Shown here: positions 44,638 to 64,000 of the stretch, piece by piece
Position numbering within the stretch: position 1 is the stretch's first letter
How the letters are laid out: each line of letters begins with the position of its first letter
Source of the DNA: Candidatus Bathyarchaeia archaeon
Lineage (GTDB): Archaea > Thermoproteota > Bathyarchaeia > Bathyarchaeales > Bathycorpusculaceae
NCBI GenBank assembly: GCA_049512075.1
Contig: JBEKXL010000005.1
Span: 1 to 64,000, forward strand
Direction: 5' to 3'
Length of the DNA stretch: 64,000 bases
Notes under the pieces: generated by a model
What the model saw: only the letters and a program-made list of their open reading frames with translations
Database searches by the model: none
Told to the model about the DNA's origin: nothing
Program-made: the position numbers and the translations under genes

Positions 44638-46008
44638 TTGAAGATTCCAATTCTATGGAGCAATGGAGTAAGTAAATCAGTGAAATCATTAATCGTCAAA
44701 GGAAAATATGTCTTAACGCTGGACAGAGAGTACAGAACAATCCAACAGGGAGCCGTTTTCGTAGAAGGCGACAAAATTCTGGACGTTGGACCTGCAAAAA
44801 AAATCGAAAGCTCTTACAGCGCTGATGAAATCATTGATGCTAAAGAATGCGTAGTGATGCCGGGACTGATTTGCAGCCACAATCACATGTACGGCGTTCT
44901 TTCGCACGGCATACCCGTTTCCCAGACAACGTCAACTTTCATAGCCTTTCTGAAGAAGTTCTGGTGGCCCCGCATTGAAAATGCTTTGAACAAAGAACAG
45001 ATAAGCGCCGCTGCTTCTATGTCCTCAATTCAAATGGTGAAAACGGGAACAACGTGTTGCGCCGACGTTTTGGAGGCTCCAAACTCGATTCCAGGAGCTC
45101 TGGAGGTTGAGGCTCAAGCGACTGAAATGGTAGGTTTGCGTTCCGTGCTGAGCTTCGAGGCCACTGAAAGAATAAGCGAAGAGAACGGGTGGAAGGGGGC
45201 TGAAGAAAACCTCAACTTCATAAAAATGTATAACAGAAAAAACGATTCATTGACAAAGGGTATGTTTTGCACGCACACCACGTTCACTTGTAGCCCGCAG
45301 TTTCTGAGGAAGGTGAGAGACCTCGCCAACGAATATCCGACAGGAATACACCTTCACTTGGAAGAAGGCGCCTATGAATCAAAGTATTGCCTCACGAAGT
45401 ATGGGAAACTTCCGGTTGAGCTTTACGAAAAAATAGGTTTCCTAGGCTCCGACGTTCTGGCATCTCAATGCGTGCACACGCTTCCAAAAGAAATCAAACT
45501 ATTACGGAAACACGATGTCAAGATTTCGCACATGCCTCTAAGCAACTGTGAAGTCGGCGGTGGCATAGCGCCTGTTCCAAGTTTTCTGCAAGCGGGTCTT
45601 ACAGTCGGACTTGGAACGGACGGATATATCCAAGACATGTTTGAAGTGATGCGAGTCGCATTCCTCATACATAAAGGAAACCTCCAAGACGCCAGCGTCA
45701 TGCCTGCCGAAGCTGTTATTAGAATGGCCACAGTTGACGCTGCAAAAGCGATCCGCATGGAAAACCTCGTGGGCTCAATAACCCCCAAAAAACAAGCCGA
45801 CATCATAACGGTAGACTTGGAATCTCCAACGCCAGTAACAGCGGAAAACCTGATTCCACAACTCGTCGTCTTTGGCGAGGGGAAAATGGTTCAGGATGTC
45901 CTGATAAACGGCAAGAAAATAATGAGAAACAGAAAAATACTCACCATGAATGAAGATATGGCAAGGACGAAGTGTAGAGAAGCTGCAGAGAGTCTGTGGA
46001 ATACCTGA
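44638..46008 (+). CDS. SsnA-like amidohydrolase (chlorohydrolase/deaminase family)
   Basis: PGLICSHNHMYG, FLKKFWW, HLHLEEG, QCVH, GLGTDG. Confidence 0.82.
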   Translation: MKIPILWSNGVSKSVKSLIVKGKYVLTLDREYRTIQQGAVFVEGDKILDVGPAKKIESSYSADEIIDAKECVVMPGLICSHNHMYGVLSHGIPVSQTTSTFIAFLKKFWWPRIENALNKEQISAAASMSSIQMVKTGTTCCADVLEAPNSIPGALEVEAQATEMVGLRSVLSFEATERISEENGWKGAEENLNFIKMYNRKNDSLTKGMFCTHTTFTCSPQFLRKVRDLANEYPTGIHLHLEEGAYESKYCLTKYGKLPVELYEKIGFLGSDVLASQCVHTLPKEIKLLRKHDVKISHMPLSNCEVGGGIAPVPSFLQAGLTVGLGTDGYIQDMFEVMRVAFLIHKGNLQDASVMPAEAVIRMATVDAAKAIRMENLVGSITPKKQADIITVDLESPTPVTAENLIPQLVVFGEGKMVQDVLINGKKIMRNRKILTMNEDMARTKCREAAESLWNT

Positions 46009-47120
46009 TTGAGCGAATGGTGATGGTAAGAACGGTTCGAACGTCACTTTCATTGTGCGGAGTAAGTTTGTCAAACCCTCTGATTCTCGCCGCGGGACCG
46101 TACGGACGCGACGGCAAGACCTTGGAACGCGCGGTGAGGGCAGGTTTTGGCGCAGTTACGACAAAAACGATTAGGCTTGTTGCGGCCAGAAACCCTTTCC
46201 CTAACATGGCCCGGATAGGCAGGGACGCGCTGATTAACGCTGAGAAATGGTCTGACCTTCCTCTTCAAACGTGGGTTACGCACGAGATACCTGCGGTGAA
46301 GCATCTTGGGGTGCCGGTGATCGCCAGCATCGGGTTCACAGAGAAAGAAGCTGGAAAAATCGCTCCGCTGGTTGAAGAGGCTGGCGCTGACTTCATCGAA
46401 ACTGTCACTTACGACGCGGATCAGGTTTTGCCGACGGTTAAAGCCGCCAAGTCCGGAGCGAAAGTTCCTGTGATAGCTAAGGTAAGCGCGAATTGGCCGG
46501 ATTTCCTGAGAATAGCGGTCAAAGCTGAGAAGTTTGGTGCCGACGCCGTTTCAGCGATAGACTCTGTGGGTCCCGTGTTGGCGATAGATGTTGAAACTGG
46601 AAAACCCTTTCTTGGCAATGCGAACGGCGAAGGATGGCTTTCCGGGTCCGCTATTCACCCAATGGCCGTGAGATGCGTTGCCGAAATAGCCAAGCGAGTG
46701 AAGATACCAGTAATAGGTATAGGCGGGATTTCAAACAGTCAAGACGCTGTTGAGATGATGATGGCAGGCGCCCATTGTGTTGAACTGTGCACCGCCCCCG
46801 TCCTCCATGGACTGCAAATCGTCAATCGCATAAAGAACGAGCTTGTCGAATTCATGGAACTGAAGGGCTACAAGTCCATTCAGGAGCTGCGCGGAATCAC
46901 GCTAAAACATCTGGAGAAACAGAAAGAAGAAAGCAAGAGAAGACTACATCCACAGATCGATCGTGAAGCCTGCACTTCATGCGGACTTTGCGCAAATCTC
47001 TGTCCATATCAGGCATTGGCTTTGAGCGAGGGAAAAGTAATCTCATACAAATTAGACTGTCTCAGCTGCGGTCTATGCTATTCCGTTTGTCCTCGGCACG
47101 CCATAAAACTCAGGAGCTGA
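45996..47120 (+). CDS. Dihydroorotate/dihydropyrimidine dehydrogenase-like FMN protein with 2x[4Fe-4S]
   Basis: NPLILAAGP, GAVTTKT, VPVIAK, GWLSG, IGIGGI; CTSCGLCANLCP and CLSCGLCYSVCP. Confidence 0.82.
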   Translation: MEYLIERMVMVRTVRTSLSLCGVSLSNPLILAAGPYGRDGKTLERAVRAGFGAVTTKTIRLVAARNPFPNMARIGRDALINAEKWSDLPLQTWVTHEIPAVKHLGVPVIASIGFTEKEAGKIAPLVEEAGADFIETVTYDADQVLPTVKAAKSGAKVPVIAKVSANWPDFLRIAVKAEKFGADAVSAIDSVGPVLAIDVETGKPFLGNANGEGWLSGSAIHPMAVRCVAEIAKRVKIPVIGIGGISNSQDAVEMMMAGAHCVELCTAPVLHGLQIVNRIKNELVEFMELKGYKSIQELRGITLKHLEKQKEESKRRLHPQIDREACTSCGLCANLCPYQALALSEGKVISYKLDCLSCGLCYSVCPRHAIKLRS

Positions 47121-49066
47121 ACCGCATCACACTCAAATACAAGGGGTACATGGGGAAAATCCTCCGAATAGATTTGACGGCAAGAAGGATACACAAGCAA
47201 GACTTACGGAATGAGGATGCCGAGAAGTTTCTAGGCGGCACAGGGTTCTGCACGAACATTCTTTACGATGAGACTGGCCCAGAAACGAACCCCCTTGGAC
47301 CAGAAAACCGCCTAATATTCGCAGTCGGCCCCCTATCAGCCACAACGTGGCCAGAGTCAGGAAGATACGAAGTTGGCGGCAAGAGTCCGCTCACCAACAT
47401 TCTTGGAGGAGCAAATTCTGGAGGAAGCTTCGGACCTGAAATGAAACGGGTCGGCTACGACGCCATTATTTTCCAAGGTCGTGCGTCCAAACCGGTCTAC
47501 GTCTACATAGAAGATGGAGAGGTCAAGATATTAGACGCAAGAAACCTTTGGGGAAAAGACACTGAGGAAACCATGACAATAATAAGCCAAGACCATGGTC
47601 AGAAAACTCAAGTAGCTTGCATAGGCCAAGGTGGAGAGAACCTTGTGCGTTACGCGGGAATAGTCACGGACCGTTTCCGCCTTGCAGCTCGGTCGGGCTT
47701 GGGGGCAGTCATGGGTTCCAAGAATCTGAAAGCCCTCGCTTTGAAAGGAAGTCTTCGTGTAGAAGTTGCGGACCCAGAGCGTTTCACTGAGCTTGTCGCC
47801 GAGGCAGATAAGAGAATCAAAGCAGACCCTTTTGTGCCCGAAGTCAGAAAGTACGGTACGACGATTCTTGTCGGAGCAATGAACGAGATCGGAAGGTTTC
47901 CGACCAGGAACTTCCAGACAGGAGTTTTTCCCGCGGCTGACAAGATCAGTGGCGAAGTGCTTGTTGAGAAATATAAAATAGCGGACAAGGCATGCTTCGG
48001 TTGCAGGCTTGCATGCAAGAACGTCATCAGAGTCAAGAAAGGCCGCTTCAAGGGAATGACACTGGATCATCCCGAATACGAAACGATATGTGCCTTCGGA
48101 GGCCGAATCGGAAACGACGATCTCGATTCGATAATTGAGGCGCACGTTCTCTGCAACCTCTACGGCATCGACACCATTTCAACCGGCGGCGTAATAGCGT
48201 TCATGATGGAACTATACGAGAAAAGAATAATCAGCGAAGCAGACACAGGAGGCATTGCTTTCAGGTGGGGAGACAAAGACCTGGCTCTGGACCTGATACG
48301 CAAGATCGCATACCGAGAGGGCATAGGCGACCTTCTGGCCGAGGGAACCAAGAGAGTTGCAGAGCGGCTTGATCGCGGTGCGGAAAAATACGCCATGCAC
48401 GTTAAAGGAATGGACATTCCCGCTCAGGATGGCAGAGCACAGAAATCGATGGGGCTGGCACACGCAGTCTCCACAAGAGGGGCAGATCATCTGCGCGCCT
48501 CGGCTTTTCTGGACGAAATAGGTTTTGAAGAGGCTGTGAAGAAACGTTTTGGCAAACGCTATCTGCCCGAAATGGCAAACAGGCTGGACGAAACATACAA
48601 GGGAGTGATGGTTAAGGAGTGTGAAGACTTTGCAGCCGTCGTGAGCTCGCTAGGTCTCTGCTTGACTGGAGGGTATGCGTACCCGCCAATCTTCTATTTC
48701 AAGGATCTCGCAGAAGCCGTCAGAGCCGCAACAGGGATGGAAGCCACTGAGAAATTCTTGCGGACAGCCGGAGAACGCATAGTCAATCTCCAGAGAGCAT
48801 ACAACATTCGCGAAGGCTTGTCTCGGAAAGACGATAAACTGCCGGCGAGGTTTACCGAAGAACCGAGTCCGGACGGGCCGTGCAAGGGACAAAAAGTGAA
48901 ACTCGAAATGATGCTGGACGAGTATTATCAGACACGCGGATGGGACGTCAAAACTGGTCTAATCCCCCGAGAGAAACTGGAACAACTCAACCTGAAGAAC
49001 GTTGCAGACGATCTTGGCAGAAGGGGGAAGCTTCCAATGAGGAATAGGAAAACTCATGGTGGGTAG
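47117..49066 (+). CDS. Tungsten-containing aldehyde:ferredoxin oxidoreductase family
   Basis: GYMGKILRIDL, KSPLT, ARSGLGAVMGSK, CFGCRLAC, PEYET, HVKGMD, RGADH. Start uncertain (CTG 47117 or ATG 47150). Confidence 0.92.
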   Translation: MNRITLKYKGYMGKILRIDLTARRIHKQDLRNEDAEKFLGGTGFCTNILYDETGPETNPLGPENRLIFAVGPLSATTWPESGRYEVGGKSPLTNILGGANSGGSFGPEMKRVGYDAIIFQGRASKPVYVYIEDGEVKILDARNLWGKDTEETMTIISQDHGQKTQVACIGQGGENLVRYAGIVTDRFRLAARSGLGAVMGSKNLKALALKGSLRVEVADPERFTELVAEADKRIKADPFVPEVRKYGTTILVGAMNEIGRFPTRNFQTGVFPAADKISGEVLVEKYKIADKACFGCRLACKNVIRVKKGRFKGMTLDHPEYETICAFGGRIGNDDLDSIIEAHVLCNLYGIDTISTGGVIAFMMELYEKRIISEADTGGIAFRWGDKDLALDLIRKIAYREGIGDLLAEGTKRVAERLDRGAEKYAMHVKGMDIPAQDGRAQKSMGLAHAVSTRGADHLRASAFLDEIGFEEAVKKRFGKRYLPEMANRLDETYKGVMVKECEDFAAVVSSLGLCLTGGYAYPPIFYFKDLAEAVRAATGMEATEKFLRTAGERIVNLQRAYNIREGLSRKDDKLPARFTEEPSPDGPCKGQKVKLEMMLDEYYQTRGWDVKTGLIPREKLEQLNLKNVADDLGRRGKLPMRNRKTHGG

Positions 49067-50916
49067 GCGTTGCAGGCTTTCAGCCCGAGTTCTTTGAGCT
49101 TTTCTTTTCGGGGGGTTCCCTGCTTGGACCATCCCCTAAGACGGTAGTATTTCGAGAGCATCCTGTCCAGTTCGACTGTGCTTCCTTCGAGTGGTTCTTT
49201 GAGGAACCTCTGGGGTAGCTGATCGTCCTTTCGAGAGAACCCCTCTCGTACGTTGAAGCATCGTTCCAGGTTGACGATTCTTTCTCCACAGTTCAAGAGT
49301 TCTTCTTCGGTGAAATTCTCTCCTGTCAACGCTGTGAGGGCTTTTGCAAAATCTGAAGGCATGAAAACGTAGGTTTCGGTCGTGGTGAATTTGCAGACGC
49401 CTAAGGCGTCCGTGATTGCGCAATAGTTTTCAGTGAAAACTACAATTTCAGGCTTGTACGTTGGGTTCCTCGTGTCCAAGATCTTTTCCAAAGGCTTTCG
49501 GGGGAAGAGCTGCTTCGCAACTTCCGTTTTTCGTGCAGAGTCAATCGTTGGCAGAGCGTAGAGGTGATCTGCACCGCGGTTAGATACGGCGTGGCCCAAG
49601 CCGAAGGCTTTCAGAGTTCTCGACTCCTGTCTCGGTATCTCCATTCTCTTAACGTGCATCGCAAACCTGCTTGCCTGTCCGCCTATTCTCTCAGATGCTC
49701 TCGCCGTGCCTTCCGCCAAGACATCGCCGAATCCCTTGCGATGGGCAATCATCCGGATGAGTTCCAGCGTGCTTTCAGCGTTACCCCATTCTAGGGGGAG
49801 TCCCGTTTCCTCCTTGGATATCAAACCCTTTTCGTAGAGTTCCATCGCGAAGGACACTGTCACGCCGGTTGAGATGGTGTCCAACCCCAGTTCATTGCAA
49901 AGCTGGTTGGCCTTCATGATCACGCTGAAATCTGCAATCCAGCACATCGGCCCGAAAGAGTCTATGCTTTCGTACTCTGGTCTCGAGCCCTCCAGAGGCG
50001 CGTATTTCCCTTCCGTGACTCTTGCGTATGCTCGACAGTGGATGGGACATGAGTAACATGTTTCTGGTTTGAGGAAATATCTCTCCCTTATCGTTTCTCC
50101 TGAAATCTGTTCAGCCCATGGAAACCTGGCGATCTGATGGTTCTTGGCTGGAAGGTCTCCTGTCTCATTCTTCGTGGCAATAAGCCACGGCGTGCCATAA
50201 TTGCACAGGCCTTTCAGTTGTGGGTTCTGAGGAGACCAGCTTTTGAGAGCAGCCGTGCATAACTCGCGGAATTTTTCAGGATATGCGGCCTCAACCTTGT
50301 CTTTTCCGGTCACTGCCACTGCTTTCAAGTTTTTGGAACCCATAACCGCTCCCAGTCCACATCTGCCAGCTACTCTGTCCCTGTCGGTTATGATTGAGGC
50401 TATTCGAACCAAGTTCTCGCCCGCCGGTCCTATGCAGGCAACACGGCACTTACCTATTTCTTCCTGAACTGCCTTTATCGCCTCGCTCGTTGTCCTCCCC
50501 CAGATGTGTGCGGCTGACTTCAACGTCGCAGTTTCGTTTTCAACGTGCAGATACGCGGGGTTTCTTGCTTTTCCTGATATGTGTATCAGGTCGTACCCAG
50601 CGAATTTCAGCTCTGGACCGAAGTAACCGCCAGCATGGGCGTACCCTAAACCGTTTGTGAGTGGCGATTTTGCTGCCACTGTTATTCTTGAAGAAGTCGG
50701 CCACATGGTTCCAGCTAGTGGTCCTGCGGAAAAGAGCAGGATGTTTTCAGGTGAAAACGGGTCTGTTTTTTCTTTCAGCTCTTCGAAAAGGTAGTACGAA
50801 GTTAGGCCACGTCCACCCAAGAACTTCTTCAGCATTGGCTTTTCAAGGCTATATTTTTGAACTTCGCCTGAAGTCAAGTCTACGTTTAGTGCTTTTCCCG
50901 TCCAACCGGATGTCAC
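49054..50916 (-). CDS. Tungsten-containing aldehyde:ferredoxin oxidoreductase family
   Basis: GWTGKALNVDL, GGRGL, KSPLT, GRCGLGAVMGSK, CYSCPIHC, PEYES, RGADH. Confidence 0.92.
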   Translation of the reverse strand: MTSGWTGKALNVDLTSGEVQKYSLEKPMLKKFLGGRGLTSYYLFEELKEKTDPFSPENILLFSAGPLAGTMWPTSSRITVAAKSPLTNGLGYAHAGGYFGPELKFAGYDLIHISGKARNPAYLHVENETATLKSAAHIWGRTTSEAIKAVQEEIGKCRVACIGPAGENLVRIASIITDRDRVAGRCGLGAVMGSKNLKAVAVTGKDKVEAAYPEKFRELCTAALKSWSPQNPQLKGLCNYGTPWLIATKNETGDLPAKNHQIARFPWAEQISGETIRERYFLKPETCYSCPIHCRAYARVTEGKYAPLEGSRPEYESIDSFGPMCWIADFSVIMKANQLCNELGLDTISTGVTVSFAMELYEKGLISKEETGLPLEWGNAESTLELIRMIAHRKGFGDVLAEGTARASERIGGQASRFAMHVKRMEIPRQESRTLKAFGLGHAVSNRGADHLYALPTIDSARKTEVAKQLFPRKPLEKILDTRNPTYKPEIVVFTENYCAITDALGVCKFTTTETYVFMPSDFAKALTALTGENFTEEELLNCGERIVNLERCFNVREGFSRKDDQLPQRFLKEPLEGSTVELDRMLSKYYRLRGWSKQGTPRKEKLKELGLKACNAYPP

Positions 50917-51010: not shown

Positions 51011-52027
51011 CTAGGTTTTGAAGGATGAAATGATGTCCGTCCCAGCTGACGTTATCCCTTTTTTCCCATCAGGCATAACGAAGATCATCTGTGTCACTCC
51101 AGCTTTGAAGAATTCTTCAACTCTTCCGAGACATTTGTTGGGCTTCCCAGCCACCGAAAACTCATCTATCATTTCATCCGTCATCAAGCCCATCGCTTCA
51201 GCGTCCATTCCTTTCTGCAAGGCTTCTCGAATAGATGCTACACGTTCTATCTTAGTGCCCAATGCCTCATGCACTGAATTCGCGGTGAAAGCAGTCATAA
51301 AAGTGGCCAAATGTCTCACTCTCTTCCTAGCCTCAGAGTCATTCTCGGCGATGGCAAAAGGGAGAATGTTGCCCACGTCTATTTCATCCATGCTCCTCCC
51401 CGCCTTTGAGGCCCCTTCCTCAATTGTTTTCAACGCGTTCTCAATGTAATGAAAAGGCGTGTTCAATAGAGAACCGTCAGCCAATTCGCCGACCATCTGC
51501 ATAAACTTGGGGCTTCTGGCTGCCAGATAAACTGGAACCTTGGTCTTCGGATGAAAAGAAAGATGAACGCCGTTTGCCTTTATCATTTCTCCATCATAGT
51601 CCACAGTTTCGCCAGCCAATACCCGATTCATAACGTTGATACCCTCCCGAACTGTGGCTAAAGGTTTCTCCCACATCTTTATTCCCAACGGTCTGAGAGG
51701 CATTTCTCCTCCGGGCCCCAAACCGACGACAACGCGTCCATTCGCCATTTCCTCGAGCGTGGATGCAAAGACGGCTAAGAGCGCCGGATGTTTCGTGTAG
51801 AAGTTGCATATGCCCGTTCCAATCTTAATCTCGGATGTTTTGAGAGCCACGGTTGTCATGTTTACAATAACGTCCCTGCAAAGAGGCGAAGGATTCTCGT
51901 CCGCAATCCAAACGTGTTTGAAACCATGCGTTTCAGCTGCCTTGGCCAGTTTCGCCGTGTCCAAGGCGGGAGCGAAACCAGCGAGGTTCAGTCCAAAAGT
52001 TCTTGTGCGAGCCATGTTTGTCTTCAC
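51011..52027 (-). CDS. LLM-family (likely F420-dependent) reductase, Mer-like
   Basis: AETHGFKHVWIADE, IGTGICNFYTKHPA, GLGPGG, VPVYLAA..PK....GELADG. Confidence 0.8.
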   Translation of the reverse strand: MKTNMARTRTFGLNLAGFAPALDTAKLAKAAETHGFKHVWIADENPSPLCRDVIVNMTTVALKTSEIKIGTGICNFYTKHPALLAVFASTLEEMANGRVVVGLGPGGEMPLRPLGIKMWEKPLATVREGINVMNRVLAGETVDYDGEMIKANGVHLSFHPKTKVPVYLAARSPKFMQMVGELADGSLLNTPFHYIENALKTIEEGASKAGRSMDEIDVGNILPFAIAENDSEARKRVRHLATFMTAFTANSVHEALGTKIERVASIREALQKGMDAEAMGLMTDEMIDEFSVAGKPNKCLGRVEEFFKAGVTQMIFVMPDGKKGITSAGTDIISSFKT

Positions 52028-53042: not shown

Positions 53043-53142
53043 ACTGGCCAGGCAACTGACCTTGCAATCGTTGCATATGGGAAGTGAACCGATCTTTTTA
53101 ATACACGACTGTCCAAGAAGGTTTGGGAACGCGATTAAGACT

Positions 53143-56786: not shown

Positions 56787-57596
56787 ATGAAAAAAGAAGG
56801 GAATAACGTGTCTCAAGTTGGCAAAATCCTTCGAATGGGCCGAATATTCGATGAGAAAACCAACAGAACGCTTATTGTAGCTATGGACCACGGCCTGTTC
56901 ATGGGGCCCGTGAAGGGGCTGGAAAAACCCCTCGAAGTCGCCAGAAAAGCGTTGAAAAGTGGTGCAAACGCTCTGGTAGTCACCCCCGGTGTATGCCGTT
57001 TGATCGCTGGAGAAGTAAGAGGCAAGGCCGGAATCATACTTCGAATTGACGGGGCAACCACGGCGTATGGGCCTGATTTTTTTGACGTCCGCAGAATTGC
57101 CAGCGTCAAAGACGCTGCAAGAATGGGTGCAGATGCCGTTATCGCCATGGGATACATGGGAACTCTGAAAGAGAATGAAACCCTGGCAAACCTCAGTCTC
57201 ATCGCCCGTGAATGCGAAGAATTCGGCGTGCCACTCGTGGCAGAGATGATCCCCGTTCAATGTGAAAAAATCAAAGATCCGTACGACGCCGAAATCGTCA
57301 GTCTCGCGGCCCGCGTGGGGGCTGAAATCGGAGCGGACTTGATCAAGACTCACTACACTGGAACTGAAGGCACCTTCAGAGAAGTTGTCAAGGGTTGTCC
57401 GGTGCCCATAGTCATCGCTGGGGGCCCAAAGATGAAAACCGCAGAACAAGCGCTGAAAGTGGCGAAGGAGGCCGTCAACGCGGGAGCAGTCGGAGTGGCT
57501 TTCGGGCGCAACGTGTGGCAGCATGAGAACCCAGAGGCTATGACAAAAGCGATAGCCAAGGTTGTGCATGGAAAAGCTCGATCCAAGAGGCTCTGA
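56787..57596 (+). CDS. Class I aldolase (DhnA/LsrF/ADH-synthase family)
   Basis: AMDHG, GADLIKTHYTG, IAGGPK, GRNVWQ. Confidence 0.88.
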   Translation: MKKEGNNVSQVGKILRMGRIFDEKTNRTLIVAMDHGLFMGPVKGLEKPLEVARKALKSGANALVVTPGVCRLIAGEVRGKAGIILRIDGATTAYGPDFFDVRRIASVKDAARMGADAVIAMGYMGTLKENETLANLSLIARECEEFGVPLVAEMIPVQCEKIKDPYDAEIVSLAARVGAEIGADLIKTHYTGTEGTFREVVKGCPVPIVIAGGPKMKTAEQALKVAKEAVNAGAVGVAFGRNVWQHENPEAMTKAIAKVVHGKARSKRL

Positions 57597-57676: not shown

Positions 57677-59161
57677 CTATTTTATGGGTTTTTCGGCTAG
57701 GCAGTATTTGCATCTGCTCGGCATCAGTTTTGCTGAAGGACATTGTTTGCAGTAGAAGAATGGAAGGTAAGGCTTTTGCGGTTCCAAGGCGATGAGTTCA
57801 GTGCCGTACAGGCATATCATGGGATCACTGTACAGGTGAAAAGGGTCGTCTGCAAACCGAAGCAATCCACTGAAACGTGCCGTGATGGGACATTCTGGCC
57901 ATGAGTATCTCTGCGGATTCTTCAAGACTTCATTGTCATCTATGGGCTGAAGGTCGATTTTGACGCCGTGAATTTGACCGCCCAGACCAGTCGGAGGCTT
58001 CTCAATCAAGTGTTCTCCCTGAGATAGGAAGCTGACGAATTCATCGTTCATGCATTCATACTCGAACTTTTTAGGATTTTCGAGAAGTAGGTTGAAGTAT
58101 CTTCTCATGAACAGGTCGTTCACCATTTCCGACGTGAACCCGTCAAGCCGCATTATGTGTGCAGCTCCGGCGGCTGTTACCTCCCACGTTGGTATTTCTG
58201 AAGGGTTGCCGAGCTTTCCGTTCTTTTCCGCTCTTTTGATTGTGCTTTCATAGGCTTCTGTCAGGCTCTCAAGGATGGCCATTTCAATGTCGCCCTTGCA
58301 TAGGTTGTAAGTGGTTTGAGAGACGTGGTGGAAGTCTCCGGCAGCCCAGAATGGAATCAAGCTGAGGTTTGCGTAGTGTACGCCTGCCTCAGCAGCCTTA
58401 ACGGTTGCATCGAAAATTCGGTCCTTAAACATCGTCATGCATTTCTCGTAGTCGAAGGATTTTTGTCCCGTTTCTTTCATTAGCTGAACTTGCGTTGCGA
58501 TTGGGTTTAGCCACATTTCTTTCATTCTTTCTTTCTCAGCCTCAGCCGCTTTGTGGACATCGTTGGTGTCCGCTAGTACGGTGAGAAACTTTGAACCGAA
58601 CATTACGCTGTAACTGGTGTTGCGTGCCGCCGATACCGCGTTGATGAAAGCCCATTTGTACTCAGTTTTCATCGGAAGGTTGTCAATGATTCTTCTGAGC
58701 AGGTTTGAGAATGAGCCGGGAGTGGCCACATAATCTGCAATCCACGACGGCCCATAGCGACCGCAAAACCGGGCCAGAACTTCCTCCGTGATCAAGTCGG
58801 TGGACTTGTCAACAGCTTCGGCGACCTTTAAGGAGGCGCGCTTGAAATCTCGGTCGAACTCGTACAGGATTTCAAAAACCGCCGTCGTCTGATAGTGTTC
58901 CAGCCAAGGCTCATCTTCAGGACGCACATAGTCCGTGAGGCTGCTGATAACATCGTACGCGGCCTTCGCTGAAACCGAATAGAGGTCAAAAACGTCCTTC
59001 GACTGTTTCCCGCAGGGGACAAAGCGCTCCTTCGCATGAAGCATCGGCTGCCAATCACTTACCTTAAACCGTCCACCACGCTCCTTTTTGACTGTGTCCA
59101 CCCATGCCTTCTGGATGCTCAAGATTTCATCCGCGATTTTTTCAGCCAATTTACCTCTCAT
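57677..59161 (-). CDS. DUF2193-like protein
   Basis: RFCGRYGPSWIADYVATPGSFSN, GDFHHVSQTTYNLCK, PQRYSWPECPITARFS.L.RFAD, C-terminal CKQC...CKYC. Confidence 0.7.
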   Translation of the reverse strand: MRGKLAEKIADEILSIQKAWVDTVKKERGGRFKVSDWQPMLHAKERFVPCGKQSKDVFDLYSVSAKAAYDVISSLTDYVRPEDEPWLEHYQTTAVFEILYEFDRDFKRASLKVAEAVDKSTDLITEEVLARFCGRYGPSWIADYVATPGSFSNLLRRIIDNLPMKTEYKWAFINAVSAARNTSYSVMFGSKFLTVLADTNDVHKAAEAEKERMKEMWLNPIATQVQLMKETGQKSFDYEKCMTMFKDRIFDATVKAAEAGVHYANLSLIPFWAAGDFHHVSQTTYNLCKGDIEMAILESLTEAYESTIKRAEKNGKLGNPSEIPTWEVTAAGAAHIMRLDGFTSEMVNDLFMRRYFNLLLENPKKFEYECMNDEFVSFLSQGEHLIEKPPTGLGGQIHGVKIDLQPIDDNEVLKNPQRYSWPECPITARFSGLLRFADDPFHLYSDPMICLYGTELIALEPQKPYLPFFYCKQCPSAKLMPSRCKYCLAEKPIK

Positions 59162-59335
59162 AGGCGAACCTCGTTTCAAACTCAGCCCTCTATCTACACG
59201 CGCGTCTTCACGCGTGTTTGAATTGCGTCTGTGATCCTTCATAAATATTGTCATACATCAAACACACTCTTCCGATAGGCTCAGAACGGCATTCTCTGAG
59301 TTGAAAAAGTATTATTAGTGACTCATTAACCTTGG

Positions 59336-60127
59336 ATGAGGCTGGAGGGATTCTCGGTGCGTCAAGGAGAACTAAGGGGCAGCGTGGCCTTGGTTACCGG
59401 AGCTGGGTCTGGGATTGGACGTGCCATTGCTGTTCTTTTCGCTTGTGAAGCTGCGAAAGTGGCTGTTGCTGATGTGAGTGAAGGTGACGGAAAGAATACA
59501 GTCGAGCTCATCAAGAAAGAGGGTGGGGACGCGATTTTTGTCCAAGGAGACGTATCCAAGTCTACTAGTGTCAAGAGAATGGTCGAAGCAACTGTTGAAA
59601 AATACGGGAAGCTTAACGTACTCGTTAACAATGCGGGAGTCGAATCCACAGGCTCTGTCGTGGAGGTTACGGAGGAGAACTGGGACAAGGTCATCGATAT
59701 CAACTTGAAAGGCACTTTTCTCTGCTCAAAGTACTGCGCGCCAAGAATAATTGAAAGTGGGGGCGGTGCGATTATCAACATTGCCTCAGTGCTGGGTCTG
59801 GTAGGTTCTAAAGGTGAAGCTGCTTATTGCGCCTCAAAGGGGGGCATGATATCGCTTACGAGAGCCATGGCATTGGATTTCGCTTCCGAGAATGTCCGTG
59901 TGAACTGCATCTGTCCAGGCTCTGTCCTCACTCCGACGTTTAAACGAGTGATGATTGCTTCAGGAGACTATGACATCGCATTTGCCCGAAACCTGGAAAA
60001 GATACCGCTTAGACGCGTCGCAGCTCCTGAAGAAATCGCCCAAGCAGCACTGTTCTTGGCGTCGGAGAAATCTTCCTATATGACTGGAGCCGCCTTGGTA
60101 ATGGATGGCGGGTGGTCAACATCTTAG
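59336..60127 (+). CDS. Short-chain dehydrogenase/reductase
   Basis: TGAGSGIG, NNAG, YCASK, VNCICPG, DGG. Confidence 0.92.
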   Translation: MRLEGFSVRQGELRGSVALVTGAGSGIGRAIAVLFACEAAKVAVADVSEGDGKNTVELIKKEGGDAIFVQGDVSKSTSVKRMVEATVEKYGKLNVLVNNAGVESTGSVVEVTEENWDKVIDINLKGTFLCSKYCAPRIIESGGGAIINIASVLGLVGSKGEAAYCASKGGMISLTRAMALDFASENVRVNCICPGSVLTPTFKRVMIASGDYDIAFARNLEKIPLRRVAAPEEIAQAALFLASEKSSYMTGAALVMDGGWSTS

Positions 60128-60144
60128 GCAAAAGGTGAAGTCAC

Positions 60145-61239
60145 TTAGAAAATGGTTTTCTCAGTCGCTTTGTCAAAAATGTGAATACGCTGGTCGTTAA
60201 ACTTCACAAAGACTTTTTCTCCTTCTTCGAATCTGAAGAGAGGATCAACTTTTGCTGTGATTATGGATGACCCGATTTCTAGGCTTGCGTATCCGGTGTC
60301 TCCGAAATGTTGGAAAAGCCAGACTTTGGCTTCAACTGCGCCTTTGGACTGTTCTTTGTTCACGTAAACGTGTTCGGGTCTGATGCCCATCACTGCGTCG
60401 CGCTCAGTGAACTTTTTCTCTTTCATTGAGTCTCTGCTGCTTTCAGAGATTTCCATTTGGAACGCGCCAGTTTCCACGTATGGCTCACCGTTCTTTTCCA
60501 ATAAGTGGCAATCAACGAAATTCATGACTGGTATGCCCACGAACGTAGCGACGAACTTGTTGATTGGGTGATCGTAAATGTTCAGCGGCTTGTCAATTTG
60601 ATGCAGCAAACCGTCCTTCATAACGGCTATTCTGTCAGCAAGCACCATTGCTTCAGCCTGGTCATGAGTGACATAAACCGTGGTCGTTTTCAGCCTTTCG
60701 TGCAGCTTCTTCAATTCGCCTCTCATCTTGATTCTCAGGATCGCGTCTATGTTTGAAAGTGGCTCGTCCAAAAGGTAGATGGAAGGCTTCCTGATTGCCG
60801 CCCTGGCTAAAGCGACACGTTGTCTTTGTCCTCCGCTGAGTTGGCCAGGCCTGCGTTCCATGAGGTCACCAATCTGAAGTAGATCCGCCGTTTCCTGGGC
60901 TCTCTTCTTAATCTCTTCTTTCGGAACATTTGTGACTTGGAGGCATAGAGTGATGTTGTCATAAACTGACATGTGTGGATAAAGAGCATAGTCCTGGAAA
61001 ACCATGGCAACTTTTCGTTCCTTCGGTTCAAGGTCAGTCACCCGTTTTTCATCAAAGAAGATGTCTCCGCTCGTCGGTTGCTCTAGTCCTGCAATCATCC
61101 TGAGGGTCGTTGTTTTACCGCATCCAGAAGGTCCAAGCAGAACAAGGAACTCGCCGTCCTCTATCTCAAGGTTCAACTCGTCGACAGCCTTCACTTTCTT
61201 GAAGTGTTTGCAGAGATCCTTAAGGGTTATTTTTACCAA
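60145..61239 (-). CDS. Sugar ABC transporter ATP-binding protein (MalK/MsmX type)
   Basis: GPSGCGKTT, VFQDYALYPH, LSGGQRQR, DEPLSN, VTHDQ, TOBE domain. Confidence 0.93.
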   Translation of the reverse strand: MVKITLKDLCKHFKKVKAVDELNLEIEDGEFLVLLGPSGCGKTTTLRMIAGLEQPTSGDIFFDEKRVTDLEPKERKVAMVFQDYALYPHMSVYDNITLCLQVTNVPKEEIKKRAQETADLLQIGDLMERRPGQLSGGQRQRVALARAAIRKPSIYLLDEPLSNIDAILRIKMRGELKKLHERLKTTTVYVTHDQAEAMVLADRIAVMKDGLLHQIDKPLNIYDHPINKFVATFVGIPVMNFVDCHLLEKNGEPYVETGAFQMEISESSRDSMKEKKFTERDAVMGIRPEHVYVNKEQSKGAVEAKVWLFQHFGDTGYASLEIGSSIITAKVDPLFRFEEGEKVFVKFNDQRIHIFDKATEKTIF

Positions 61240-61293: not shown

Positions 61294-62301
61294 TTAAGGT
61301 TTGCCCATGACATTGTGAACCCGCGGATTCTGTGCTTTGCTCAGTCTGAGGCATTTTCTTATCGTTAAGGGATTCACTTTGCCGGCCTCACATATTTCCC
61401 CTGTCTTCAGGTTGTTTATCATAACCTGGGCTGGTCGAAAGATACCGGGGTAGCCGGGGATTTTCCTGAAATCGTTTTTTGCATGTTTCAGCAATTCTGA
61501 AAAGGTTTTTCCATAGATAGGGGTGGACTCAAACACTAGTTCCTTCGCAAGTCTGTGTATGTCTTCATTGTCTGGCTCTATGGTCATGTACACTGTTCCA
61601 CCATAGCAAAGGAAATCATCTGGAAACGTCTTCATCTCGTCCGATGGACAGACGGGAACTATCGGAGCTGTTCCAACCATTTGTCTGACTTTTCTCACAT
61701 CATAGTGGAGAATTTCCCACATTGTGAATGTAACATCCTCTATTGCTCGGCCTGCAATCTGGGTCGCGCCTGCGATGCTTCGTAGGGGAGTAATGAGCAT
61801 GAACAAGGACGCAGGATCAATATTGCATTCCACAGCGATTCTTTTGGACAACTGCACGGAAGGCAGGTCGTCCATTTGAAGTACTATCACGCCGACCCTG
61901 GAATCGTCATTAACATCCAGCATGTCAAAGAGTTCCTTAGGCTTCTGCGCCAGAACTCTTGCAGGACCAGAGGCAATTGAGGTTGTTTCTTTCTGTTTAA
62001 GCAAGGGATAGCCCGCTTGGACGCCCAAAGTAGCAATAGCAGGCGAGTCTGTCATTACTGTTGCTGCGGGGAGTATCAGGTCTCCGAGTTGTACCATGGT
62101 CAACGATGCCTTGCCAAGTCCACCGAGACAGATCTCGATGATCAGCCTGCCAACTTCAAACCCTCCTCGTGCATGGACTCCACAATCCAATATGGTGGCT
62201 CCACTGTCCGACATTGTGACTACTACACCGAACTTCTCGGGGCACTCCAGAATTCCGTTAACTATCCTGAAAGAAATTTCATTCACTTTTATTCTAGGCA
62301 T
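61294..62301 (-). CDS. mch: Methenyl-H4MPT cyclohydrolase-like protein, paralogue 2
   Basis: IKVNE, GATILDCGV, EICLGGLG, ASGPARVL, QIAGRAIE, YGKTF, PAQVMINNLKTG. Confidence 0.85.
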   Translation of the reverse strand: MPRIKVNEISFRIVNGILECPEKFGVVVTMSDSGATILDCGVHARGGFEVGRLIIEICLGGLGKASLTMVQLGDLILPAATVMTDSPAIATLGVQAGYPLLKQKETTSIASGPARVLAQKPKELFDMLDVNDDSRVGVIVLQMDDLPSVQLSKRIAVECNIDPASLFMLITPLRSIAGATQIAGRAIEDVTFTMWEILHYDVRKVRQMVGTAPIVPVCPSDEMKTFPDDFLCYGGTVYMTIEPDNEDIHRLAKELVFESTPIYGKTFSELLKHAKNDFRKIPGYPGIFRPAQVMINNLKTGEICEAGKVNPLTIRKCLRLSKAQNPRVHNVMGKP

Positions 62302-62311
62302 GTTGAATTCA

Positions 62312-63274
62312 TCAGGTTTCTTGCGCGTACTTGGGATCGGAGGTCTCATGCGAGTTTTCAACGAGTTCTCGCAGGTATATCTTGTTTTTCCCCCAGAGAC
62401 CTCCTTGGTTGAAGCTGCTTATTCCTGTTATTCCTTGTATTCTTGTGATCGTGTCCAAGGAGACTCTCAAGCCCTTTTTCACGGTTTCCAGGTCTAGACT
62501 CCAGACCAGATACTCAATAACAGTGTTGACTCCTAGAGGAACTCTAGTTTCCGCGATCCTGTTACGGATAGTCGGGCACAAGAAAGTCGTGCTTGTCGCT
62601 TTTTCGTTTGTGTAATTAACGCCTCCAATTTTCGCTCCATTCAAACCTCCAAACGGGTGCATCACAAAGGCTCCATCAACCTCATCTTGAACCCTCTCGG
62701 CTGCGGCTCTGGTTGCCAATAGAGCGCAAGAAATGTCCTGACAGAAGAGTTCAAACGCACCATCAAAACTTGTGGTTAATCCAAAGGATTTCTCGACTAT
62801 CGATTCGCCACTCATCACTGGAATGCGGTATATTTTTCTTCCTTCGAGCTGGTCTTCCGTCTCGTAGCCGTCGCCCCAGCGCCTGACCGTTTCGCCCGAG
62901 TTCGTTGTAGCAAGTGTTTTTCTTTTCGGGACTGCGTTGAAAACTGCAACTGTAGGCATGTGTGGAGTTTGGCAGAGCATGTTGGTGAATGCGTCTTCAA
63001 ACATTTTCCTTCCGTCTTCAGTTTCAATGCTCATGCTTCTATTTCCTCGCAGAAGGACAAGGAAGCCTGGTCTCCTATCAGGGGTTTTCGTTGGCGATAC
63101 AGAGTTGCCCAGAAAGCCTTCGATCGGCGAGAAGGTTATGATTCCCCTGCACAGTCGTTGAGCGTTGGCCAGCGCAGCTTCTCTTGTGAGGCTGGTTACG
63201 AGGATTTCGGAGGATATTATTTCGCTGGATTCTATGTAAGTGTCTTCGATGTCCACGCCATTGATCTTCAGCAT
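62312..63274 (-). CDS. ftr: Formylmethanofuran:H4MPT formyltransferase-like protein, divergent
   Basis: KINGVDIEDTY, TPDRRPG, WGDGYE, RIPVMSGE, LCPTI, VIEYLV, FNQGGLWGKNKIYL. Confidence 0.8.
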   Translation of the reverse strand: MLKINGVDIEDTYIESSEIISSEILVTSLTREAALANAQRLCRGIITFSPIEGFLGNSVSPTKTPDRRPGFLVLLRGNRSMSIETEDGRKMFEDAFTNMLCQTPHMPTVAVFNAVPKRKTLATTNSGETVRRWGDGYETEDQLEGRKIYRIPVMSGESIVEKSFGLTTSFDGAFELFCQDISCALLATRAAAERVQDEVDGAFVMHPFGGLNGAKIGGVNYTNEKATSTTFLCPTIRNRIAETRVPLGVNTVIEYLVWSLDLETVKKGLRVSLDTITRIQGITGISSFNQGGLWGKNKIYLRELVENSHETSDPKYAQET

Positions 63275-63309
63275 CAGATTGCAGGTCCGTGGTGGTTGGT
63301 GCTCACGTT

Positions 63310-64000
63310 TTACCAAGGATTGCTCATGAGTCTTCCAATAATGTCTTTGTGAACTCTGCCAGCCTTGTGCATCCTTCCTGTCCTAGTGTCGCTTATAGCG
63401 AACTCTCCAATTATGAAACCAAGTCCTTCTTTGGCGAGCTTGTGCAAATCCAACGTCGGATCGATGTACTTCTTTTCTTCCACTGCCATGTGATAGAATG
63501 ATGTGCCGAAGGTGTTCGGATAGTTCTCTATTACTGATTCCTTAACCATCGTCCCGAAATCCTCTCCTTCTTCTGAACGAACCCAACAGTGAACTGTACC
63601 GCCATATCTGATCATGTCATCGGGCCAGCTGCAAGGTTGCTGCAGAGCTTTCGGCGAAACCGGCGAAATCGGTGTGGTTCCCATAACGTTCTCTATGCGA
63701 CGATAAGGAATCTTGTAATATTCAGTGAGTCGCCAGAACATGTCTTCCACACCCCGCGAGGAGGTTTGAGTGGTTCCCGTTATGCTGTCTGTGGGAATGA
63801 CAACCAAGTATAGATTTTTCGGGTCGATTCTGCACCTCTTTGCGATGATTTTTGAGAATTCTTCATCTGGAAGACCGTCCATGCGTGAACGTGTTTGGAC
63901 CAAGAGGACCGCGTTGTCAGGGTGAGGATCTTCGTAGGGCCATTTCTCAAATATCTTGGCTGGTTCTTGAGCTATAGCCTTCGCCGGTCCTGATATCCAG
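63310..64000 (-). CDS. mch: Methenyl-H4MPT cyclohydrolase-like protein, paralogue 3 (5'-truncated by window edge)
   Basis: Frame is open to the window end: WISGPAKAIAQEPAKIFE...QTSSRGVE...PDDMIRYGG...FGTSF...SDTRTG. Confidence 0.8.
   Translation of the reverse strand, partial: WISGPAKAIAQEPAKIFEKWPYEDPHPDNAVLLVQTRSRMDGLPDEEFSKIIAKRCRIDPKNLYLVVIPTDSITGTTQTSSRGVEDMFWRLTEYYKIPYRRIENVMGTTPISPVSPKALQQPCSWPDDMIRYGGTVHCWVRSEEGEDFGTMVKESVIENYPNTFGTSFYHMAVEEKKYIDPTLDLHKLAKEGLGFIIGEFAISDTRTGRMHKAGRVHKDIIGRLMSNPW

Follow-up and report, generated by a model that had tools for sequence, protein, structure and literature searches.

Divergent Mch- and Ftr-family paralogues in an accessory catabolic gene island of a Bathyarchaeial genome: a putative link to nucleoside breakdown

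Introduction

Mch, Ftr and Mer are used as metagenome markers of methanogenesis, methanotrophy and the archaeal Wood-Ljungdahl pathway. What, then, do genes of these three families do when they stand among sugar kinase, dehydrogenase, aldolase and amidohydrolase genes? The question is raised by the first 64 kb of contig C5 (JBEKXL010000005.1, 133.8 kb) of Candidatus Bathyarchaeia archaeon GCA_049512075.1 (G000; 2.73 Mb in 86 contigs, 99.8% complete); this whole stretch is called the window here. A preliminary description of the window had proposed that C1 enzymes of the tetrahydromethanopterin (H4MPT) type were repurposed there, in an island of about 19 kb, for the breakdown of sugars and heterocycles. 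The observation of the gene island was confirmed, its earlier interpretation was partly supported, and the roles of the individual enzymes are putative. The locus is a catabolic cluster built partly of new subfamilies of known C1 enzymes, and its genes form one functional unit rather than a chance neighbourhood.

Results

Mch-family paralogues

Every gene named in the earlier list was found at its place by Pfam and NCBIfam scans. Those of the C1-enzyme families are the following:

52077-53042, + strand: Mch1, a non-canonical methenyl-H4MPT-cyclohydrolase-family protein that heads the sugar operon (PF02289, 291 bits)
61294-62361, - strand: Mch2, a non-canonical Mch-family protein, its frame overlapping the end of FtrL (PF02289, 273 bits)
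63310-64383 (contig positions), - strand: Mch3, the most divergent Mch-family protein, with its 5' part past the window end (PF02289, 198 bits at full length)
62312-63316, - strand: FtrL, a divergent formyltransferase-family protein (FTR 75 bits, FTR_C 73 bits)
51011-52027, - strand: MerL, a Mer-like F420-type LLM oxidoreductase (TIGR03555 259.3 against a cut-off of 348.7; PRK02271 256.5 against 276)

As described before, Mch1 is the first gene in a co-directional run that continues with an FGGY kinase, a ribokinase, a Zn-dependent dehydrogenase and an aldolase, and Mch3, FtrL, Mch2 and a MalK-type gene are also co-directional, their reading frames overlapping or abutting. MerL and Mch1 are divergently paired.

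All three Mch-family proteins pass the Pfam cut-off of 25 bits; with the TIGR03120 equivalog model (cut-off 228.8) Mch1 (283) and Mch2 (262) are above the threshold, while Mch3 (191) is below it. Identities are 30-35% among the three and 27-39% with the canonical Bathyarchaeial Mch, the values for Mch1 being 34-39%. In 51 of 60 relatives from the same order an Mch match was detected, and in 48 of these 51 it was the only one; the full-length housekeeping copies score 357-425 bits. Thus the earlier statement that the C1 genes usually occur as single copies held for Mch among the relatives, though not for Ftr, which is normally present in two copies in this order. Extra Mch copies (195-291 bits) were found in a single genus only, that is in G000, G002 and G003, where the Mch1 type scores 288-291, the Mch2 type 273-274 and the Mch3 type 195-198 bits. 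Comparison of Mch3 with 1.84 billion library representatives yielded 533 family members at E <= 0.001, only 3 of which were closer than 40% identity.

In a FastTree analysis of 162 rows, all 25 Mch sequences from the window and from FtrL-bearing loci, together with 21 library rows, were placed on the side opposite to all 21 housekeeping copies, and the genome's own mch fragment on contig C18 grouped with the canonical Mch of the congeners. A mixture-model IQ-TREE (93 rows) placed the 50 canonical Mch sequences on one side of a branch with a support of 94 in the SH-like approximate likelihood ratio test (SH-aLRT), and the island copies outside, in at least three deep lineages. The trees were quick searches without bootstraps. 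The clades outside the canonical side in the IQ-TREE analysis were these:

Mch2 clade: 6 rows, support 91
Sister clade of Mch2 (support of the join 87): 15 rows, support 100; it holds all FtrL-linked Mch-like proteins of Bipolaricaulota
Mch3 clade and its sister rows: 7 + 4 rows, support 98-99
Mch1 clade: 4 rows, support 100

The approximately unbiased (AU) test against uniting the Bathyarchaeial paralogues with the canonical Bathyarchaeial Mch gave a delta lnL of 440 and a formal p = 0.00035, and a recent lineage-specific duplication of Mch was rejected on the basis of this test.

Conservation in 85% or more of 115 canonical rows was seen for 29 Mch columns; 19-26 of these are retained by the paralogue clades, and 26 by Mch2, the R..E pair included. 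In the R..E columns of all five non-canonical clades the Glu is present in 100% and the Arg in 67-100% of the rows, and the pair was also kept when Mch3 was aligned to 1qlm, the Mch of M. kandleri. A replacement of Asn by Asp at N229 is common to all five non-canonical clades.

Three long Mch-containing proteins of the library (P0035, P0101 and P0122) were considered as possible Ftr-Mch fusions, and none of them is an Ftr fusion. P0101 has no second Pfam domain. P0035 (601 aa) carries a canonical-scoring Mch domain and an N-terminal weak match to the FwdC-type GXGXG family (28.9 bits, below the cut-off of 32.5), and in P0122 (636 aa) a canonical-scoring Mch domain is fused to an N-terminal ATP-grasp domain. 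The frames of 598-683 aa around bacterial Mch-like genes were likewise rejected as fusions, being long open frames which overlap FtrL in another frame.

FtrL and the housekeeping C1 genes of the genome

The NCBIfam scores of FtrL, 160.0 and 165.6, are far under the cut-offs of TIGR03119 and NF002554 (292.6 and 297), and the protein shares 30% identity with the canonical Ftr of the same genome. In a quick IQ-TREE the FtrL clade (35 rows, SH-aLRT 100, stem 1.05) stood apart from 16 canonical Ftr rows. The separate position which the preliminary description had expected of the island copies was therefore seen in the trees of both families. FtrL keeps 31-32 of 49 conserved Ftr columns, and its E268, which aligns with E245 of M. 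kandleri Ftr, is invariant in 12/12 rows and present in 100% of both the Bathyarchaeial and the more distant FtrL sequences. Among the 60 relatives an FtrL orthologue was found in one (G002, 97% identical), and none was found in a class-wide sample of 300 other Bathyarchaeia; on the FtrL profile G000 reached 608 bits and six canonical Ftr proteins 189-202 bits. Prediction of an FtrL and Mch2 complex returned a score of 0.02, which gives no answer and was used neither way. A third divergent Ftr clade (3 rows, SH-aLRT 100, stem 1.22) was also observed; it is made up of loci L027, L029 and L030 from genomes G021, G024 and G004, the last one being a congener without the island.

The genome has canonical mch and ftr genes outside the island, a point that the preliminary description had left to be checked. 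Four Mch matches were obtained, three in the island and a fragment at the start of contig C18, where an fwdD-fwdB-fwdA-fwdC operon (FwdA 814, FwdB 551, FwdC 255 bits) is followed by an mch cut by the contig end. The Ftr matches are three: a canonical one on C22 (371 and 388 bits), one of a second type on C2 (349 bits), and FtrL. By tblastn, fwd genes occur only on C18 and C60; no fwd was detected on contig C5, and the F420-dependent Mtd (PF01993) was found nowhere in the 99.8%-complete genome, in agreement with the earlier remark that the window holds neither fwd nor mtd. The genome also encodes Fae twice, on other contigs, and CofE three or four times, outside the island.

Further observations concern these housekeeping genes. 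On the short contig C60, at 47-1776, a second FwdB (68% identical) and FwdD (54%) are encoded, suggesting a second formyl-methanofuran dehydrogenase isoenzyme. The second Ftr scores 349 bits with PRK02114 and 244 with TIGR03119, the latter being below the cut-off of 292.6; it shares one co-directional run, C2:178290-182617 (locus L016), with genes for a kinase of the PfkB family, for a 360-aa protein that lacks annotation and for a PurD-like glycinamide-ribonucleotide synthetase (260 bits against a cut-off of 288). An Ftr paralogue tied to purine-type chemistry may be lineage-wide, most relatives having two Ftr matches.

MerL

MerL is below both NCBIfam Mer cut-offs, and its nearest solved structures are true Mer proteins (212 bits) rather than FGD (68 bits). 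It is the only good Mer-type match in the genome. Orthologues were found in 2 of the 60 relatives, G002 (96%) and G003 (84%), in each case paired with Mch1, and the next best match was 36% identical. Since MerL falls below both cut-offs and has orthologues in only 2/60 relatives, it is not a housekeeping gene. The refuting case considered beforehand, in which the island would hold the genome's only copies of these genes and these would be canonical, does not apply to Mch and Ftr; for MerL the first half of it applies, as the sole Mer-type gene. The presence of CofE in the genome makes F420 a plausible cofactor of MerL. As a separate observation, out of 61 genomes, namely the 60 relatives and G000, 39 gave no Mer-type match at 1e-30.

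Conservation of the island across lineages

The synteny was analysed by tblastn of 22 island proteins against loci retrieved by the FtrL profile. In L037, L038, L043 and L047, with FtrL 74-97% identical, the entire gene order is kept. Congener G003 has the island order without FtrL, Mch2 and the aldolase. Congener G004 has, at the thresholds used, a single canonical Mch only, no MerL match and no Ftr match above 32% identity, and in congener G001 (77% complete) there is no Mch and no MerL match, the best Ftr match being 34% identical. Because of this patchy distribution among relatives and congeners, the island is accessory.

Reduced or rearranged sets occur at greater distance, in L048 and L050, in L039 and L054-56, which are of a Hadesarchaea type, and in L057, L058 and L040. 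In L048 and L050 (FtrL 57-58%) the order is permease, permease, FtrL, short-chain dehydrogenase/reductase (SDR), Mch3, followed in both by the Zn-dependent dehydrogenase and in L048 by the aldolase. L050 has PRPP-synthetase-like, IF-2B-family and RuBisCO-large genes alongside FtrL-SDR-Mch3; we take these to represent the archaeal nucleoside pentose-bisphosphate route. The Hadesarchaea-type loci, one contig of a Hadesarchaea metagenome-assembled genome (MAG) and three metagenome contigs, encode an FtrL of 39% identity in a set which comprises an Mch3 type, an MFS transporter, Amh2 (a second amidohydrolase), FtrL, DUF2193, a PfkB kinase, an ADP-ribosylglycohydrolase, FGGY, a phosphoesterase, MalK, an Mch and an M19-family protein.

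The module was also detected in bacteria. The FtrL profile matched 13 of 121 sampled Bipolaricaulota genomes, with FtrL about 28-37% identical, and nine loci were fetched. All nine contain FtrL, and in 8/9 the Zn-dependent dehydrogenase and two permeases are upstream of it. An Mch2-type gene directly follows FtrL in 6/9 (one further contig stops at FtrL), Amh2 is present in 6/9, DeoC in 5/9 and an RbsK-type kinase in 3/9. A block of two aldehyde:ferredoxin oxidoreductase (AOR) genes with the SsnA-like and, in part, the PreA-like gene, in the order AORb-AORa-SsnA(-PreA), comes after FtrL or FtrL-Mch in 3/9, one of them cut by the contig end. In L107 only the RbsK-type kinase and a distant AOR accompany FtrL. 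The complete operon of G172 consists, from its first gene to its last, of a LacI regulator, DeoC, a metallophosphoesterase, a binding protein, a small molybdopterin-oxidoreductase-like protein, the Zn-dependent dehydrogenase, two permeases, a DAGK-like kinase, FtrL, an Mch-like protein, Amh2, a GlcD-like FAD oxidase, a CCG/Fe-S protein, an ADP-ribosylglycohydrolase and a ribokinase over the equivalog cut-off. Wherever both are present, in the Bathyarchaeia, Hadesarchaea-type and Bipolaricaulota loci alike, Amh2 lies within two genes of FtrL. Contamination was considered as the origin of the bacterial matches and rejected, given 13 genomes with an FtrL-profile match and 8/9 loci that share the arrangement of dehydrogenase, permeases and FtrL.

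Each of five FtrL-bearing Bipolaricaulota genomes (5/5) has exactly one Mch-family match, the neighbour of FtrL, at 132-176 bits, and in the same 5/5 no FwdA was found over the cut-off of 393 (best 29 bits). Fhs (formate-tetrahydrofolate ligase) is present in 4/4 tested. Since neither FwdA nor a second Mch was found in these bacteria, the FtrL-Mch pair probably functions outside the classical methanofuran (MFR)/H4MPT methyl branch. The beta-RFAP synthase model TIGR00144 was below its cut-off in the bacterial and Hadesarchaea MAGs, and likewise in G000 (23 bits) despite its clear H4MPT-type enzymes. The co-location, on whose conservation the earlier proposal depended, is thus kept not only in congeners but also in metagenome contigs farther away, in one Hadesarchaea MAG and in bacteria of the Bipolaricaulota, and this cross-lineage synteny is the strongest evidence for the module. 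The conserved module is a compact one, made up of ordinary enzymes of soluble type.

Genes of heterocycle type and DUF2193

The left part of the island encodes an amidohydrolase, a flavoprotein and two AORs, and a DUF2193 gene is found further on:

44638-46008, + strand: SsnA-like amidohydrolase, cog0402-type, TRZ/ATZ/SsnA group (Amidohydro_1, 180 bits)
45996-47120, + strand: DHO_dh/PreA-like flavoprotein with C-terminal 2x[4Fe-4S], UacX-like (PF01180 and Fer4 families)
about 47150-49066, + strand: AORa, tungsten-type aldehyde:ferredoxin oxidoreductase family, start refined from the translation (AFOR_N 258 bits, AFOR_C 457 bits)
49054-50916, - strand: AORb, a second AOR family protein (AFOR_N and AFOR_C)
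57677-59254, - strand: DUF2193 protein, single copy in the genome (PF09959, 442 bits)

The top NCBIfam models of the SsnA-like protein are those of SsnA, with scores of 345.9 against a cut-off of 444 and 330.5 against 455.5, both below; among solved structures MTA/SAH deaminase and 8-oxoguanine deaminase come nearest to it, and a 42% orthologue stands beside PreA-like and AOR genes in Bipolaricaulota. For the two cog0402-type amidohydrolases together, the SsnA-like protein and Amh2, the solved proteins closest to them are adenosine-type deaminases, 8-oxoguanine deaminases and chlorohydrolases. The frame of the PreA-like gene overlaps the SsnA-like gene. The flavoprotein scores 204 with the PreA model, below the cut-off of 335, and DHOD B and DPD are its nearest solved structures; the same pair of an SsnA-like protein and a PF01180 flavoprotein was seen in L058, L102 and L109. 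AORb is 45% identical to AORa. Orthologues of AORa (47%) are found within the Bipolaricaulota block AORb-AORa-SsnA-PreA, and those of AORb (42-45%) in Bipolaricaulota and L058, so that the AOR pair moves with the SsnA-PreA pair as a single block. The AOR pair could be a source of reduced ferredoxin. Two more AOR-family genes, 28-36% identical to those of the island, are located elsewhere in the window (2894-4741, + strand, and 12366-14186, - strand), and at least 7 AOR-family loci were counted in the genome by tblastn.

The arrangement resembles the reductive uric-acid or 2,8-dioxopurine pathway known from gut bacteria. According to its description, the dearomatisation of 2,8-dioxopurine by UacX (PF01180) or YgfK proceeds only if SsnA hydrolyses the ring in a coupled step, the UacX and SsnA genes are found together, and in some Chloroflexota an F420-type enzyme of the luciferase family is present instead (PMC12507026). 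The island is alike in having an SsnA-type amidohydrolase gene that adjoins, and overlaps in frame, the gene of a PF01180 Fe-S flavoprotein, and in having an F420-type luciferase-family enzyme near the pair, as in the Chloroflexota of that account (PMC12507026). The pathway set given there comprises XdhD, YgfK/UacX, SsnA, HyuA, YgeW/UacY, YgeY as well as YgeX (PMC12507026). In contrast to that pathway, the island SsnA-like protein is below the family cut-off, and Mch- and Ftr-like genes stand in place of the ureido enzymes.

The AlphaFold (AF2) model of the DUF2193 protein is all-alpha, with a pLDDT of 88 and a pTM of 0.87. Foldseek gave 0 matches against the PDB at E <= 0.001, the best hits being membrane transporters with TM of about 0.1, which we regard as meaningless, and a search of the ESM Atlas gave no usable match. 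At the C-terminus C502, C505 and C518 form a Cys motif that hardly varies across 19 sequences. The C-terminal Cys motif of the M. voltae homologue binds one [4Fe-4S] cluster (PMC12375889). The island protein shares with the methanogen proteins of that study the Pfam family, the all-alpha prediction and the conserved C-terminal Cys motif (PMC12375889). The methanogen genes, unlike that of the island, adjoin genes for MIP/aquaporin-type channels. A 44-45% orthologue comes immediately after FtrL in the Hadesarchaea-type loci, and by this position DUF2193 is tied to the module. The island thereby supplies a metabolic context for DUF2193, a confidently modelled fold without a solved relative.

Sugar genes, transporter and limits of the island

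The remaining genes of the island in the window encode sugar-related enzymes and a transporter ATPase, together with a lyase at the left edge:

43562-44458, - strand: DHDPS/DapA-family lyase (Pfam DHDPS 257 bits; TIGR00674 dapA 218.5, cut-off 206.15)
53035-54636, + strand: FGGY pentulose kinase, XylB-like (FGGY_N and FGGY_C; TIGR01312 XylB 377.9, just under the cut-off of 380.25)
54645-55640, + strand: ribokinase (TIGR02152 335.9, above the cut-off of 299.65)
55754-56782, + strand: Zn-dependent (MDR) polyol/alcohol dehydrogenase, Zn-ADH (ADH_N and ADH_zinc_N; no NCBIfam equivalog cut-off reached)
56787-57596, + strand: DeoC/DhnA-type class I aldolase (PF01791 167 bits; PRK07226 270, above the cut-off of 241)
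59336-60127, + strand: SDR (adh_short_C2, 229 bits)
60145-61239, - strand: MalK/UgpC-type ABC ATPase with a TOBE/OB tail (ABC_tran, TOBE_2, OB_MalK; UgpC 424, just under the cut-off of 432)

Most of them have counterparts in the distant loci. The FGGY kinase has a 42-43% orthologue in the Hadesarchaea-like loci, and a ribokinase over the equivalog cut-off (307.8) is also encoded in a Bipolaricaulota operon. Zn-ADH has orthologues of 33-37% in the Bipolaricaulota operons and in L048 and L050, the aldolase of 39-42% in the Bipolaricaulota operons, and the SDR one of 56% directly after FtrL in L048 and L050. Pfam scans of the island genes revealed no Hps, Phi or glycoside hydrolase.

The contig continues beyond 64 kb with Amh2 (TRZ/ATZ/DadD type), divergent from Mch3, with an SBP_bac_1 binding protein (contig 66322-67626) and two permeases, together contig 66322-69537, and then with an M19-family amidohydrolase. 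The binding protein and permeases that had been looked for past the end of the window are therefore present, as predicted genes, and the CUT1 ABC importer set is complete: SBP_bac_1, two BPD_transp_1 permeases and the MalK-type ATPase with its TOBE/OB tail. The island extends from about 43.5 kb in the window to about 70.6 kb on the contig, that is roughly 27 kb. The extent of about 19 kb given previously was right as to the genes, although the island begins earlier, at 43562, and ends about 6.6 kb past the window. The left edge was set at the DHDPS-family gene because an 84% orthologue holds the same edge in congener G003; this gene is probably the edge, and the part it plays in the island is uncertain. 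On the right, lipoate-ligase and 2-oxoacid-dehydrogenase genes follow, which are unrelated. A tRNA scan for an integration site between 30 and 64 kb of the window found none. At C10:37570-39021 a paralogue of the edge gene (40% identical) stands directly upstream of one Fae match; this Fae match is within a 505-aa open frame, which suggests a fusion protein.

Discussion

Substrate, direction of flux, carrier and the step of each enzyme are inferred here from gene families and their context. The reading to which we give an even chance is that the island serves to break down a ribosylated N-heterocycle taken up from outside, most probably a purine nucleoside, since a ribokinase occurs in both domains, ADP-ribosylglycohydrolase and phosphoesterases in two lineages, and two cog0402-type amidohydrolases belong to the set. 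The CUT1-type ABC system would import the ribose-containing heterocycle, a purine nucleoside or a close relative. The sugar part would be freed as ribose and related pentuloses and pentitols, and could be channelled by the ribokinase, the XylB-like FGGY kinase, the Zn- and SDR-type dehydrogenases and the DhnA-type aldolase. The two cog0402-type amidohydrolases would deaminate the base or open its ring; a UacX/PreA-like reductive dearomatisation of the base may be the work of the Fe-S flavoprotein, coupled to the SsnA-like hydrolase as in the published reductive purine pathway, and the two tungsten AORs probably yield reduced ferredoxin from the oxidation of pathway aldehydes. Formate-level ring carbons would then emerge as N-formyl or formimino groups. 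FtrL would hand the C1 unit to a pterin carrier, H4MPT in the archaeon and possibly tetrahydrofolate in the bacteria, the adjoining Mch-like enzymes would cyclise the carrier-bound C1 to the methenyl form, and in this genus MerL and Mch1 may carry the branch on towards the methyl level and acetyl-CoA.

For FtrL and Mch we favour, by analogy, a pair that would transfer the C1 unit to a pterin carrier and then cyclise it, because the two are adjacent in the canonical step order, most conserved residues are kept and three H4MPT-binding folds co-occur. Formiminotransferase-cyclodeaminase of clostridial purine fermentation and histidine degradation likewise passes C1 from a ring-opened N-heterocycle to a pterin carrier and cyclises it to methenyl, a logic which conserves carbon and energy; the protein families of the island are unrelated to it, however, and the archaeal carrier would be H4MPT. 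Fhc of methylotrophic bacteria is similar in that an Ftr homologue, FhcD (PDB 6s6y matches FtrL at 80 bits), works with an amidohydrolase-superfamily subunit. Fhc needs FwdA-, FwdB- and FwdC-like subunits, whereas none of these was found beside FtrL, and an FwdA type was not found in 5/5 module-bearing bacteria. With the canonical Mch and Ftr of archaeal C1 metabolism and the Wood-Ljungdahl methyl branch the island proteins share the Pfam folds (PF02289; PF01913 and PF02741) and the aligned R..E pair and Glu, and FtrL and the Mch-like proteins are encoded by neighbouring genes, where the canonical enzymes catalyse consecutive steps. They differ from them by their separate clades, far lower scores, accessory sugar and amidohydrolase context and absence from nearly all relatives, and by being kept in Bipolaricaulota without FwdA or another Mch.

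As Mch- and Ftr-like enzymes take the place of Xdh and of the ureido-processing enzymes, formate-level ring carbons (C-H amidines) would fit better than urea-level ones. A more specific proposal, which we put forward tentatively as a minority possibility, is that these Mch/Ftr lineages form the core of a new anaerobic purine (nucleoside) breakdown without a molybdenum hydroxylase, in which, after ferredoxin-driven dearomatisation, Mch-type cyclohydrolases and an Ftr-type transformylase would strip off the C2 and C8 amidine carbons, and these would directly enter the Wood-Ljungdahl pool of H4MPT in archaea, or of folate in Bipolaricaulota, as formyl or methenyl groups.

Several results weigh against a nucleoside pathway of this kind. 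The nearest solved relatives of the binding protein bind xylo-, arabino- and chitin-oligosaccharides, not nucleosides, albeit weakly matched (<=110 bits). No nucleoside phosphorylase or hydrolase was found in the island, and no substrate-specific marker; nor did the scan for an Xdh-type hydroxylase, HyuA (hydantoinase), YgeW (carbamoyltransferase), YgeY (M20 peptidase) or YgeX (diaminopropionate lyase), which covered the genes of the island only, yield any of them. The SsnA models, themselves below cut-off, are only narrowly ahead of chlorohydrolase models for the island protein, and for its Bipolaricaulota orthologue the SsnA score is no better than those of the chlorohydrolase models. As G003 demonstrates, the FtrL-Mch2 pair is dispensable for part of the function. 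The formal p-value of the AU test is weakened by the non-canonical Mch group having been named after the first tree was seen, and the SH-aLRT of 94 on the separating Mch branch is under 95. Finally, the argument from retained residues presumes that E245 is the catalytic Glu of M. kandleri Ftr and that R183/E186 are the catalytic Arg/Glu pair of M. kandleri Mch.

The rival that survives best is direct ring chemistry, which we consider unlikely, though live. The Mch-like enzymes would hydrolyse the substrate's own cyclic amidine or amidinium ring to an N-formyl product, acting for instance at C8 of the imidazole or C2 of the pyrimidine in a (reduced) purine, or on an N-alkylated imidazolium; FtrL would remove the formyl group by transfer or hydrolysis, and Mch would have no pterin-bound substrate. 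IMP cyclohydrolase with AICAR transformylase, and GTP cyclohydrolase III with ArfB, are chemical analogies for it. The module-bearing bacteria speak for such a scheme, as they have no FwdA or other Mch and possess the folate-type Fhs, so that the classical H4MPT/MFR context is missing; three or four Mch lineages in one island would suit several amidine carbons, and the change of Asn to Asp in all non-canonical Mch clades, together with 18 altered columns among the 49 conserved ones in FtrL, points in the same direction. However, the 26/29 columns kept by Mch2 and the R..E pair in all clades are more than expected after a switch to a much smaller substrate. The co-occurrence of Mch, Ftr and Mer, unrelated folds that share only H4MPT, makes a pterin carrier more parsimonious, and the order of FtrL and then Mch mirrors two consecutive canonical steps. 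The conserved Mch residues and the FtrL-Mch adjacency would fit a carrier-bound C1 at least as well as the opening of a substrate ring.

Less likely than this is the scavenging of cofactors, which we judge improbable. The island would dismantle a ribityl- or ribosyl-cofactor from necromass, such as methanopterin/H4MPT, F420, a flavin or folate-like pterins, with Mch-, Ftr- and Mer-like proteins that already bind the scaffold. Mch, Ftr and Mer all bind H4MPT and Mer also F420, methanopterin holds both ribitol and ribose, and the cog0402 family takes in pterin deaminases. The pentitol-type dehydrogenase pair, pentulokinase and ribokinase of the island would agree with such a substrate, as would the phosphoesterases of the Hadesarchaea-type and bacterial versions and a habitat that is probably peat, to go by the public record of locus L037 (97% orthologue). 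Extracellular reduced pterins would, on the other hand, shed their C1 and oxidise, so that C1 enzymes would be unneeded. The ADP-ribosylglycohydrolase and the true ribokinase indicate an N-ribosyl bond and not a C-linked ribityl chain, and no enzyme was recognised for the aminobenzoate or hydroxyglutarate parts.

We likewise rank the breakdown of a pentose, pentitol or oligosaccharide alone below direct ring chemistry, and hold it to be decidedly improbable. Here the C1 paralogues would clear formaldehyde or formate, and the amidohydrolase and PreA genes would be unrelated neighbours. The solved relatives of the binding protein that bind xylo- and arabino-oligosaccharides, the XylB-like kinase, Zn-ADH, SDR and aldolase, and the LacI-type regulator at the head of a bacterial operon are all consistent with it. 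Yet the genome has no Mtd, the island has no Hps/Phi or glycoside hydrolase, and Fae is on other contigs; the formaldehyde-releasing sugar offered as an alternative in the preliminary description gains nothing, both Fae genes being outside contig C5. Moreover, Amh2 lies within two genes of FtrL and the bacterial operon that holds FtrL also contains the SsnA-PreA-AOR block; the heterocycle enzymes are thus no bystanders. A chance juxtaposition of ordinary Wood-Ljungdahl methyl-branch isoenzymes with sugar operons, for which MerL as the genome's only Mer-type gene and the scores of Mch1 and Mch2 over the NCBIfam Mch equivalog cut-off could be cited, is very improbable indeed and is effectively excluded by the presence, on other contigs, of a canonical fwd-mch operon and of Ftr genes, by the absence of the island copies from 58-59/60 relatives, by their position outside the canonical clade (AU p = 0.00035) and by a synteny that crosses domains and includes Fwd-less bacteria.

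Divergent Mch and Ftr taken as C1 markers can mislead reconstructions of metabolism in Bathyarchaeia, Hadesarchaea and Bipolaricaulota. If the nucleoside function holds, peat and subsurface heterotrophs would feed nucleoside ring carbons straight into acetogenesis, by a third anaerobic purine route beside the oxidative and the Xdh-dependent reductive ones. Nucleic-acid necromass would be coupled to acetogenesis if the more specific proposal is true, and Mch- and Ftr-family enzymes would have, in Fwd-less bacteria, a first physiological role outside MFR/H4MPT C1 metabolism. A literature search, with most subscription journals outside its reach, returned nothing that connects Mch or Ftr paralogues with the catabolism of nucleosides or heterocycles.

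Other genes of the window

Two genes to the left of the island may be mentioned. An open reading frame of 1284 aa (30775-34629, - strand) is much the longest in that part of the window, and about 7 kb upstream of the island, at 35682-36827 (- strand), an aldo/keto reductase is fused to a C-terminal 4Fe-4S dicluster domain.

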